IMG/VR virus record: IMGVR_UViG_2617270988_000009
DNA from: a virus
Taxonomy: Duplodnaviria; Heunggongvirae; Uroviricota; Caudoviricetes
Direction: 5' to 3' (one strand)
Length of the DNA: 33,205 bases
Shown here: positions 25,040 to 25,626 of the stretch, piece by piece
Numbering within the stretch: position 1 is the first letter of the stretch
Layout of the letters: the number at the start of each line of letters is the position of its first letter
The notes under the pieces: generated by a model
What the model was told of the DNA's origin: nothing
The model's input: only the letters and a program-made list of their open reading frames with translations
Databases searched by the model: none
Translations under genes and position numbers: made by a program

Positions 25040-25255
25040 CCGCAAATGTTAACTGCTGCCTGGTTAACATTTGCTGAAAAAGCCAGTTAACATTTTTTTC
25101 GCACAACAAACTGAATAATAAAGATAAAAACCGAAAAAATGCCCGGGCAGCCAGTTAACATGTTAACTGGCCTGAAACAGGAATTTTTTCTCTGCATGAG
25201 ACGGGGGGCGGTGTCCGGAGCGATCGTTTTTTACGCCGAATGATACCCCCCCCGG
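25040..25255. promoter_or_regulatory. candidate cos region: GTTAAC-containing inverted repeats (25045..25073, 25083..25099, perfect 20-bp palindrome 25151..25170) plus a GGGCGGTGTCCG segment (25205..25216) resembling the lambda cohesive end
   Basis: Repeats lie between the HNH gene and the small terminase start, the usual cos position in HK97-like phages; a G6 run (25203..25208) and a C8 run (25245..25252) flank the putative nicking site. Confidence 0.45.
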
Positions 25256-25260
25256 TCGGG

Positions 25261-25626
25261 TTACAGTCCGATGATGTCGTCCGCTCTGCCACTCCCTCCG
25301 GACACCTCCGGCAGCGTCGGGTCCGGCATACCACCCGCCGCTTCACGAGCAGACTTTTGTCGATGGCATTCGGTACAGAGCGTCCAGAGATTCGTCTCCT
25401 CATTACCACCACCGAACTGAAGTGCAATTCGGTGATCGAGTTCACTATCACAGAGGTCAACCACACGACCACAGAGACAGCACTGCCCGGCATCCCTCAG
25501 CCAGATATGACGCTTGAGGGAAACCCGGGCACTGCCACTGACACGACGCTGTTCCCCCTTCAGAATATTCACCCGTCGGGTATTCAGTGTTTTGATTCTG
25601 CTCTGGAGTGTACGAAGCTCAGCCAT
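25261..25626 (-). CDS. HNH endonuclease (terminase-associated)
   Basis: HNH motif CCLCGR...DHRIALQFGG...NLWTLCTECHRQKS; located directly upstream of cos and the terminase genes. Confidence 0.8.
   Translation of the reverse strand: MAELRTLQSRIKTLNTRRVNILKGEQRRVSGSARVSLKRHIWLRDAGQCCLCGRVVDLCDSELDHRIALQFGGGNEETNLWTLCTECHRQKSAREAAGGMPDPTLPEVSGGSGRADDIIGL

Follow-up and report, generated by a model that had tools for sequence, protein, structure and literature searches.

The DNA analysed here, referred to below as the window, is a stretch of 33,205 nucleotides from the caudoviricete virus record IMGVR_UViG_2617270988_000009. We studied a non-coding gap of 289 bp (24972..25260) that lies between a gene for a small HNH endonuclease and the gene for the small terminase subunit (TerS). 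On the minus strand the order is HNH, the 289-bp gap, TerS and the large terminase subunit (TerL). An earlier note on this DNA had marked the span 25040-25626, which covers the HNH gene and most of the intergenic region 24972-25260, as a candidate cohesive-end packaging site (cos) with GTTAAC repeats. Our analysis supports that interpretation with corrections. The gap very probably serves a common Shiga toxin (Stx)-type prophage of Escherichia coli as its DNA-packaging (cos) site.

The HNH gene (25261..25626, minus strand, 121 aa; PF01844, E 7.5e-07) is the final gene ahead of the packaging site, and its product gave a weak sequence match (E 0.003) to a solved 112-aa chain, 4h9d, described as 'HNH endonuclease'. 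The TerS gene (24408..24971, minus strand, 187 aa) begins with a GTG start codon preceded by GGGAGGAGG. Its product scores 35.6 bits against PF03592 (Terminase_2), for which the gathering cut-off is 26.1, and it therefore belongs to this SF6/SPP1 G1P-like family. The N-terminal helix-turn-helix domain of TerS occupies residues 1-55. In the AlphaFold model (pLDDT >93 for residues 1-50) this domain superposes on the DNA-binding domain of SF6 G1P, 4zc3, with a TM of 0.84 and an rmsd of 1.6 Å, and the TM values against 4zc3 and 2cmp range over 0.81-0.84. The helix-turn-helix itself is predicted to consist of helices 19-25 and 33-41 (pLDDT >93). TerS gave no significant BLASTP match to HK97 gp1 and was not assigned to the gp1 type.

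The TerL gene (22750..24411, minus strand, 553 aa; PF03354 and PF20441) encodes an HK97-type protein. BLASTP indicates homology with HK97 gp2 (E 4e-12, 23% identity across 490 aligned columns), and the sole sequence relative of TerL in the PDB is 6z6d (E 5.7e-10). Here, and likewise in HK97, SfV, phiE125, D3, OP1 and Bcep176, the late operon closes with a small HNH gene that directly precedes cos and terS. The HK97-like arrangement of HNH, cos and terminase proposed earlier is thus right as regards TerL and the adjacent HNH gene, but not as regards TerS, which is of the SF6/SPP1 type.

About 94 deposited Stx1- or Stx2-converting long-tailed phages (BP-4795, 2851, YYZ-2008, 1717 and others) match the gap and its flanks at 94-98% identity. 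Phi330, which is among the phages matching the gap, belongs to the genus Pankowvirus. Of 5426 complete E. coli genomes, 1250 contain the gap, in up to 7 copies each, and none of the six E. coli genome records listed carries an annotation under the match.

The position of the cut was deduced from the genome ends of relatives. For phage Lys8385Vzw (MT225100), PhageTerm called a cos type with the 3′ cohesive ends CGCCCCCCCT (PMC7946995). The Lys8385Vzw record ends with ...GGACACCGCCCCCCCT (longer, ...GATCGCTCCGGACACCGCCCCCCCT) and starts with CTCACGCAGAG (longer, CTCACGCAGAGAAAAAATTCC...). These ends align base for base with the minus strand of the window, in which ...GATCGCTCCGGACACCGCCCCCCGT precedes the predicted cut and CTCATGCAGAGAAAAAATTCC... 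follows it. For three more distant phages the evidence consists of deposited record ends. In Bcep176 (Burkholderia; TerS 37% identical), both ends of the record show one and the same stretch of 10 nt, CGCACGTTCC, directly before CTCACGCGCAGAAAATTTTCC (CTCACGCGCAGAAAA). The OP1 record (Xanthomonas; TerL 50% identical) starts with CTCGTTCGCATAAAAATTACC (CTCGTTCGCATAAAAATT) and the D3 record (Pseudomonas) ends with GGACACCGCGCCCCCA, both at the aligned cut position. Ten-base 3′ extensions are known from related Burkholderia phages (PMC2920897), and HK97 has 10-nt 3′ overhangs, with its HNH protein gp74 stimulating cos cleavage (PMC11331095, PMC9410871). As the Lys8385Vzw ends and the three record ends align at one place and TerL is HK97-like, we place a predicted 10-nt 3′ cohesive end at 25201..25210 (minus strand), reading CGCCCCCCGT on the minus and ACGGGGGGCG on the plus strand. 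The putative nicks would lie between 25201 and 25200 on the minus strand and between 25210 and 25211 on the plus strand.

The comparison with the cos sequences of related phages that the earlier note had called for thus gave four sets of ends (Lys8385Vzw, Bcep176, OP1 and D3) at the same aligned position. Ends of near-identical as well as distant relatives, mapped or deposited, break between HNH and TerS, as it had proposed, and they align with the G-rich segment that it regarded as the cut region. The start of the phi330 record (PV189401) was tried as a further end marker; it lies inside terS and not at cos, and was uninformative. Nor did the alignment used for the ends of the other phages accommodate the SfI/SfV cos, TGCCCGCCCC. 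The SfI sequence (PMC3636060) resembles the complement of the G-rich tract of SfV, GGGGCGGGT (locus L158 in our comparison), and not the cut position seen elsewhere. Either the SfV-type cut lies within the G-rich tract, or tract and cut are confounded there.

Around the predicted cut, the sequence is conserved in parts that had gone unnoticed in the earlier note. We compared them using an ungapped line-up and 144 sites retrieved from viral and genome collections with a DNA pattern for the cos core; a protein scan of genome contigs with TerS found no relatives, but the DNA pattern did recover them. Positions are counted from the cut, with positive numbers on the TerS side. The left box, CGATCGCTCCGGACAC (25211..25226, minus strand; -11..-26), abuts the overhang. 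In its consensus, CGATCGCyCyGGACAC (-26..-11), GGACAC is kept in most relatives from E. coli, Salmonella and Klebsiella and in satellites, whereas CGATCGC is more variable. The right box, CTCATGCAGAGAAAAAATTCC (25180..25200, minus strand; +1..+21), includes an A6 tract, and its core occurs once in the window. Its consensus, CTCAYKCRCAGAAAAAATTCC, is kept in enterobacterial relatives, in Bcep176 (CTCACGCGCAGAAAATTTTCC) and in OP1 (CTCGTTCGCATAAAAATTACC). In HK97, the TerS site at +15..+29 includes an A/T tract (PMC11331095). Since the right box is conserved where TerS differs widely or is absent (Bcep176, OP1 and the satellite L098, described below), we assign it to the cutting core and not to TerS.

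The third conserved part is a G8 tract (C8 on the plus strand) at 25246..25253 on the minus strand (-46..-53), a candidate recognition or termination element of a shared type. In Lys8385Vzw, HK97 (L008), D3 (L160), phiE125 (L159), Bcep176 (L030) and OP1 (L009), the right end of the record is preceded, at a distance of 35-50 nt, by a G-rich tract, which may serve as such an element for HK97-type terminases. We found no description of it in the HK97 literature searched. In most of the HNH-associated cos phages examined the tract measures 8-13 nt, and (A)TCAAA often follows it. SfV has a G-rich tract too, but its record ends just 24 nt beyond the tract. An inverted repeat (I4, 25026-25040 versus 25194-25208) was considered as a second, inverted copy of the core on the flank of the array and discarded as a chance match, as it is not conserved in L012, L015 or L098.

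The loci compared come in two forms. In short forms, terS starts 39 nt past the cut in enterobacterial phages and about 42 nt past it in Bcep176. Long forms, including the window, have about 190 extra bp, which hold the repeat array. In the window, GTTAAC occurs in the gap at 25048, 25063, 25086, 25154 and 25162. The cluster is real and does comprise four sites, matching the four repeats counted in the earlier note, but there are five hexamers. All five lie within the 8-mer ATGTTAAC, and the five copies of this 8-mer in the 33-kb window all fall in 25046-25167. The whole window has 14 GTTAAC where 6.1 are expected. In 300 dinucleotide-preserving shuffles of the window, no 120-bp stretch held more than 2 GTTAAC, and neither did the intergenic region in any of 5000 shuffles. 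Thus, the cluster cannot be put down to chance.

The proximal site is a perfect palindrome, GCCAGTTAACATGTTAACTGGC (I11), made of two inverted ATGTTAAC half-sites. It is perfect over 22 bp (25150..25171; +30..+51), and not just over the 20 bp (25151..25170) first recognized. It is followed by an AT-rich spacer with T-tracts (25097..25149, minus strand) and by three distal sites. The first, AAAATGTTAACTGGC (25082..25096, minus strand), has its 8-mer at +108, and the second, GCAAATGTTAACCA (25061..25074, minus strand; I7), at +131. The third, GCAAATGTTAACTG (25042..25055, plus strand; I7, I8), lies +148 from the cut and is inverted relative to the other two. The spacer contains ATTCAGTTTGTTG (25104-25116; +85..+97), which resembles the consensus for integration host factor (IHF). 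With 2 mismatches to the consensus, WATCAANNNNTTR, the match is at chance level (265 such matches against 260 expected), and we rejected it as evidence. The conservation of ATTCAnnnnGTT across lineages was kept as a lead: it does not vary, at +84/+85, in any of the long-form phage arrays, where the remaining spacer is about 60% identical.

The array keeps its geometry across lineages. The sites lie at +34 (reverse), +40, +108, +131/132 and +148/149 (reverse), within 1 nt, in the window, L012, L098 and L015. In L162 the first four sites are within 1 nt of these offsets and the last is at +158, after an extra GTTAAC. The repeated word itself varies along with TerS. ATGTTAAC is found together with TerS residues A25/T32/V35 in the window type, in L012 and in L162; the TerS of L012 is 80% identical overall and identical over residues 1-57, which include the helix-turn-helix, and that of L162 is 68% identical. 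In L015-L017 (P0021) and L022 (P0029), the word is ATGTTTAT or ATGTTTAC (ATGTTTAY) and the TerS residues are E25/S32/C35. All five sites have switched in concert in these GTTTAY lineages, and in L015 both arms of the palindrome have changed together, symmetrically, to TATAAACATGTTTATA. Residues 25, 32 and 35, whose identity follows the word, belong to the predicted helix-turn-helix of TerS or adjoin it. As the TerL proteins of the two word types are 97% identical, TerL does not set the specificity for the word.

Further support comes from a satellite, L098 (IMGVR_UViG_2563366903_000013, 10690-10910), in which the entire cos site is present in diverged form. The element is 11.7 kb long and encodes an integrase, a primase, a major head protein and a decoration protein besides cos, with neither terS nor HNH. 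Its sites have been kept selectively: 46 of 50 positions within sites are identical to the window, but only 54 of 88 between them (Fisher p = 6e-5). This suggests that L098 is packaged by the terminases of Stx-type phages.

The simplest interpretation of these patterns is that the repeats are TerS recognition sites which confer specificity on packaging, a role that the R sites of cosB have in lambda and related phages (PMC6739421). The same role had been proposed for them in the earlier note, and the conserved positions, the co-variation with the TerS helix-turn-helix and the footprint in the satellite all point to it. Taking the gap as a whole, we consider it likely that it is the cos site of a lambdoid prophage of the Stx-phage (Pankowvirus-like) type, used by an HK97-type, HNH-assisted terminase and followed by an array that TerS reads.

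Several observations weigh against this view. The co-variation comprises two word types in four phage lineages and one more word in satellites. The HNH protein likewise differs between the two word types (the HNH of the L015 lineage is 79% identical to that of the window), and a DUF3950 gene accompanies 62 of the 65 GTTAAC-type loci with enough flank. An upstream array is missing from the short-form relatives (Salmonella SP-016, Klebsiella, Serratia, Pantoea and Bcep176), which means that the array is not required across the whole terminase family. HK97 TerS binds a single site at +15..+29 and offers no precedent for a multi-site array (PMC11331095). The end call for Lys8385Vzw is computational and was made on a relative, and the cut in the window prophage is deduced from the ends of relatives rather than from its own virion DNA. 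Finally, the prophage seems to end near the tape-measure gene, at the junction with host DNA, and may therefore be defective.

Among other explanations, the one that fares best accepts the cos site but has the ATGTTAAC array bound by the DUF3950 protein, the HNH protein or a host factor, in order to regulate late genes or packaging. In the window, the DUF3950 gene (YlcI/YnfO-like, phrog_949; 25668-25853, plus strand, 61 codons) is divergent from HNH and lies 41 bp from its start. Besides adjoining HNH in nearly all GTTAAC-type loci, it is absent from the GTTTAY-type loci L015-L017, so that, like HNH, it differs with the word. However, some GTTAAC arrays have no DUF3950 gene (L053 and L124) and the one in satellite L098 has neither HNH nor DUF3950, and there are GTTTAY arrays with no DUF3950 gene in the upstream flank available. 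Satellites with a private array carry a private terS and neither of the other two genes, and the residues that track the word are in or beside the helix-turn-helix of TerS. We rejected DUF3950 as the main explanation on the strength of the arrays without it, and a binder other than TerS appears unlikely overall.

The repeats might also be a non-functional relic, formed when the start region of terS, GTAAACATGTTAACAG, was duplicated upon an insertion of about 190 bp, with packaging requiring the core only. In keeping with this, the short forms, which lack the array, carry ACATGTTAAC across the start codon of terS, at exactly +39..+48, and the core alone is conserved out to phages of Burkholderia and Xanthomonas. 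A relic would not be expected to change at five sites in concert, with palindrome arms altered symmetrically, as in the GTTTAY lineages, nor to hold fixed offsets while the spacers diverge or to be kept site by site in L098. We regard this explanation as very unlikely.

The earlier note had pointed out that GGGCGGTGTCCG (25206-25217) resembles the 12-nt cohesive end of lambda, which raises the possibility of a lambda-type cos with GGGCGGTGTCCG as a 12-nt 5′ cohesive end. The likeness stands, at 9 of 12 positions of GGGCGGCGACCT, but it is superficial. The 12-mer and the terminase genes are read from opposite strands, unlike in lambda, where the cohesive end points toward Nu1, and we found no 12-nt 5′ end of the GGGCGGCGACCT kind reading toward terS. 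The predicted end is instead the 10-nt 3′ overhang at 25201-25210, of the type seen in HK97, D3 and phiE125, which overlaps GGGCGGTGTCCG by 5 nt. TerL is of the HK97 type and has an HNH partner, and four relatives end at 25200/25201 with a 10-nt repeat or 3′ overhang. A lambda-type cut is thus highly improbable.

Equally improbable is a headful (pac) region, or no packaging site at all, with the repeats acting as a late-operon operator or terminator: TerS of the SF6/SPP1 type is classically found in pac phages and there is a weak terminator-like hairpin at 25146-25131, but TerL groups with cos enzymes, the relatives have defined ends, and the hairpin, which we also rejected as a conserved part of the site, is not conserved in L015, L098 or L162 and belongs to a set of predicted terminators no larger than in shuffled sequence.

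Elements of this type are well known, and for one near-identical phage the sequence of the ends has already been published. Lys8385Vzw and the Pankowvirus-type Stx phages (2851, YYZ-2008 and 1717, also BP-4795) share the core, the palindrome and the distal repeats with the window, and the end of Lys8385Vzw, CGCCCCCCCT, is one base apart from that of the window, CGCCCCCCGT. The published account of Lys8385Vzw gives the 10-nt end only (PMC7946995), and in the literature searched we found no description of the Stx-phage repeats, the boxes or the G tract.

HK97 has the same order of HNH, cos, terS and terL, a homologous TerL, a 10-nt overhang that also starts with CGC, a G-rich tract about 45 nt upstream of the cut and an A/T tract just downstream of it. 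It differs in that its TerS is unrelated in sequence and its HNH protein only marginally similar (E 0.08). HK97 TerS uses one 15-bp site (+15..+29; PMC11331095), whereas the window has five half-sites across +30..+160. D3 resembles the window in its right end, GGACACCGCGCCCCCA, which is almost the left half-site of the window and comes after a G-rich tract and an HNH gene. It differs in its left end, GGTCTTTTTCC..., and in TerS, and it has no ATGTTAAC array. The D3 overhang is a 9-nt 3′ extension.

The array recalls lambda cosB (R3-I1-R2-R1, bound by gpNu1 and IHF, with variants in phages 21 and N15). In both, repeated sites for a helix-turn-helix protein, putative ones in the window, lie downstream of the nick and are split by an AT-rich segment with an IHF-like motif, and the repeat sequence varies with the specificity type of TerS. 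The repeats of the window are in the corresponding place and co-vary with TerS; its IHF-like motif is conserved, though the match to the consensus is at chance level, and we draw an analogy only. TerL and TerS of lambda belong to other families, and its overhang is a 5′ extension of 12 nt, whereas the window has a predicted 3′ overhang of 10 nt, an HNH partner and a palindromic proximal site. Satellites reportedly retain the cutting core and alter the part bound by TerS (PMC6739421, PMC4669245). SPP1 and SF6, whose G1P acts at pacL/pacR, share the DNA-binding fold of TerS. They are headful phages without an HNH partner or cohesive ends, and differ from the window in these respects. Like the window, in which TerS sites are proposed near the cut, these phages have several boxes for G1P binding around the cut.

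If the repeats are indeed TerS sites, packaging could proceed as follows. Read in the direction of the late genes, along the minus strand, the conserved cutting core would come first and the specificity array after it, on the side packaged first. The core would run from the G8 tract through CGATCGCTCCGGACAC and the 10 nt CGCCCCCCGT to CTCATGCAGAGAAAAAATTCC. TerL together with the HNH protein would nick 25201/25200 on the minus strand and 25210/25211 on the plus strand, leaving 10-nt 3′ overhangs. In the array, the palindromic ATGTTAAC pair centred at +40/41 would be followed by the AT-rich spacer of ~55 bp, bent or bound by IHF, and by the three ATGTTAAC sites at +108, +131 and +148. The TerS ring, through helix-turn-helix domains on its outer face, would bind the ATGTTAAC sites, place TerL on the core and select the DNA for packaging. 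The exact nicks, the strand assigned to each cutting protein, the binding of TerS and the roles of spacer, G tract and boxes are what we infer from the sequence comparisons.

Knowing the cut and the specificity sites would allow genomes of Stx-type phages to be linearised correctly and would help to predict which terminase packages which co-resident prophages and satellites. It also provides a handle on the mobilisation of Shiga-toxin phages and of cos-carrying DNA. The natural pair of words, ATGTTAAC and ATGTTTAY, read by proteins a few helix-turn-helix substitutions apart, offers a system for studying how an SF6-type TerS reads DNA alongside an HK97-type, HNH-assisted TerL.

The short forms give a hint as to the origin of the proximal site. 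In L010, L023-L027 and about 36 further loci, the start codon of terS lies inside GTAAACATGTTAACAG, exactly where the palindrome sits in the window. The proximal site may thus be ancestral, judging from this coincidence, and in short-form phages it may overlap the initiation of terS translation.

Besides L098, two other types of E. coli satellite carry the core of the site, L018-L021 and L096 (about 1411-1500) on the one hand and L028/L029 (1257-1500) on the other. They have a gene for a primase or for AlpA, and they bring their own terS, which is 46-49% identical to that of the window. The cutting core is exactly shared, and the word is their own, AAGTTACAC. The core, consisting of the G tract and GGACACCGCSCCCC, is common to enterobacterial Stx-type phages, their satellites and D3. 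HK97 has no more of it than the G tract and an overhang that starts with CGC. Tentatively, one could see in this a modular packaging code, in which a shared cutting core is joined to interchangeable, TerS-specific arrays (ATGTTAAC, ATGTTTAY and AAGTTACAC), although we hold this to be somewhat less probable than its opposite. If such a code exists, the arrays would sort DNA among related prophages that reside together in genomes of enterohaemorrhagic E. coli (EHEC). Stx-type phages would then be exploited by three or more kinds of E. coli satellite, either with a copy of the helper array (L098) or with their own terS and array (L018 and L028), and the packaging of Shiga-toxin phages would have natural parasites. 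In L018, further GTTAC words fall within the coding sequence of terS and give rise to a series of Val-Thr repeats in the linker.

Some prophages of the GTTAAC type have no intact HNH gene beside cos. In L124 (around 6650-7050), tRNA genes abut a shortened G tract; in L053 (around 2250-2560), the HNH gene is truncated at the N terminus. This raises the question of whether such prophages depend on the HNH protein of a co-resident phage.

As for the rest of the window, the part up to about 11165 looks host-like, with an integrase (3249-4499), a JmjC/RoxA-like gene, a pepT-like M20 peptidase gene and potA/potB-like ABC transporter genes; an open reading frame (ORF) at 9719-11080 had no Pfam match. 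Homology to Stx phages starts at about 11165, just past the tape-measure gene, and prophage DNA spans from that gene to the end of the window. As the tape-measure region (11574-14816) lies at the junction with host DNA, the prophage may lack distal tail genes or carry another tail module. Downstream of TerL, a single ORF of 641 aa (20761..22686, minus strand) combines the prohead protease (Peptidase_S78) with the major capsid protein (Phage_capsid) in a fusion.

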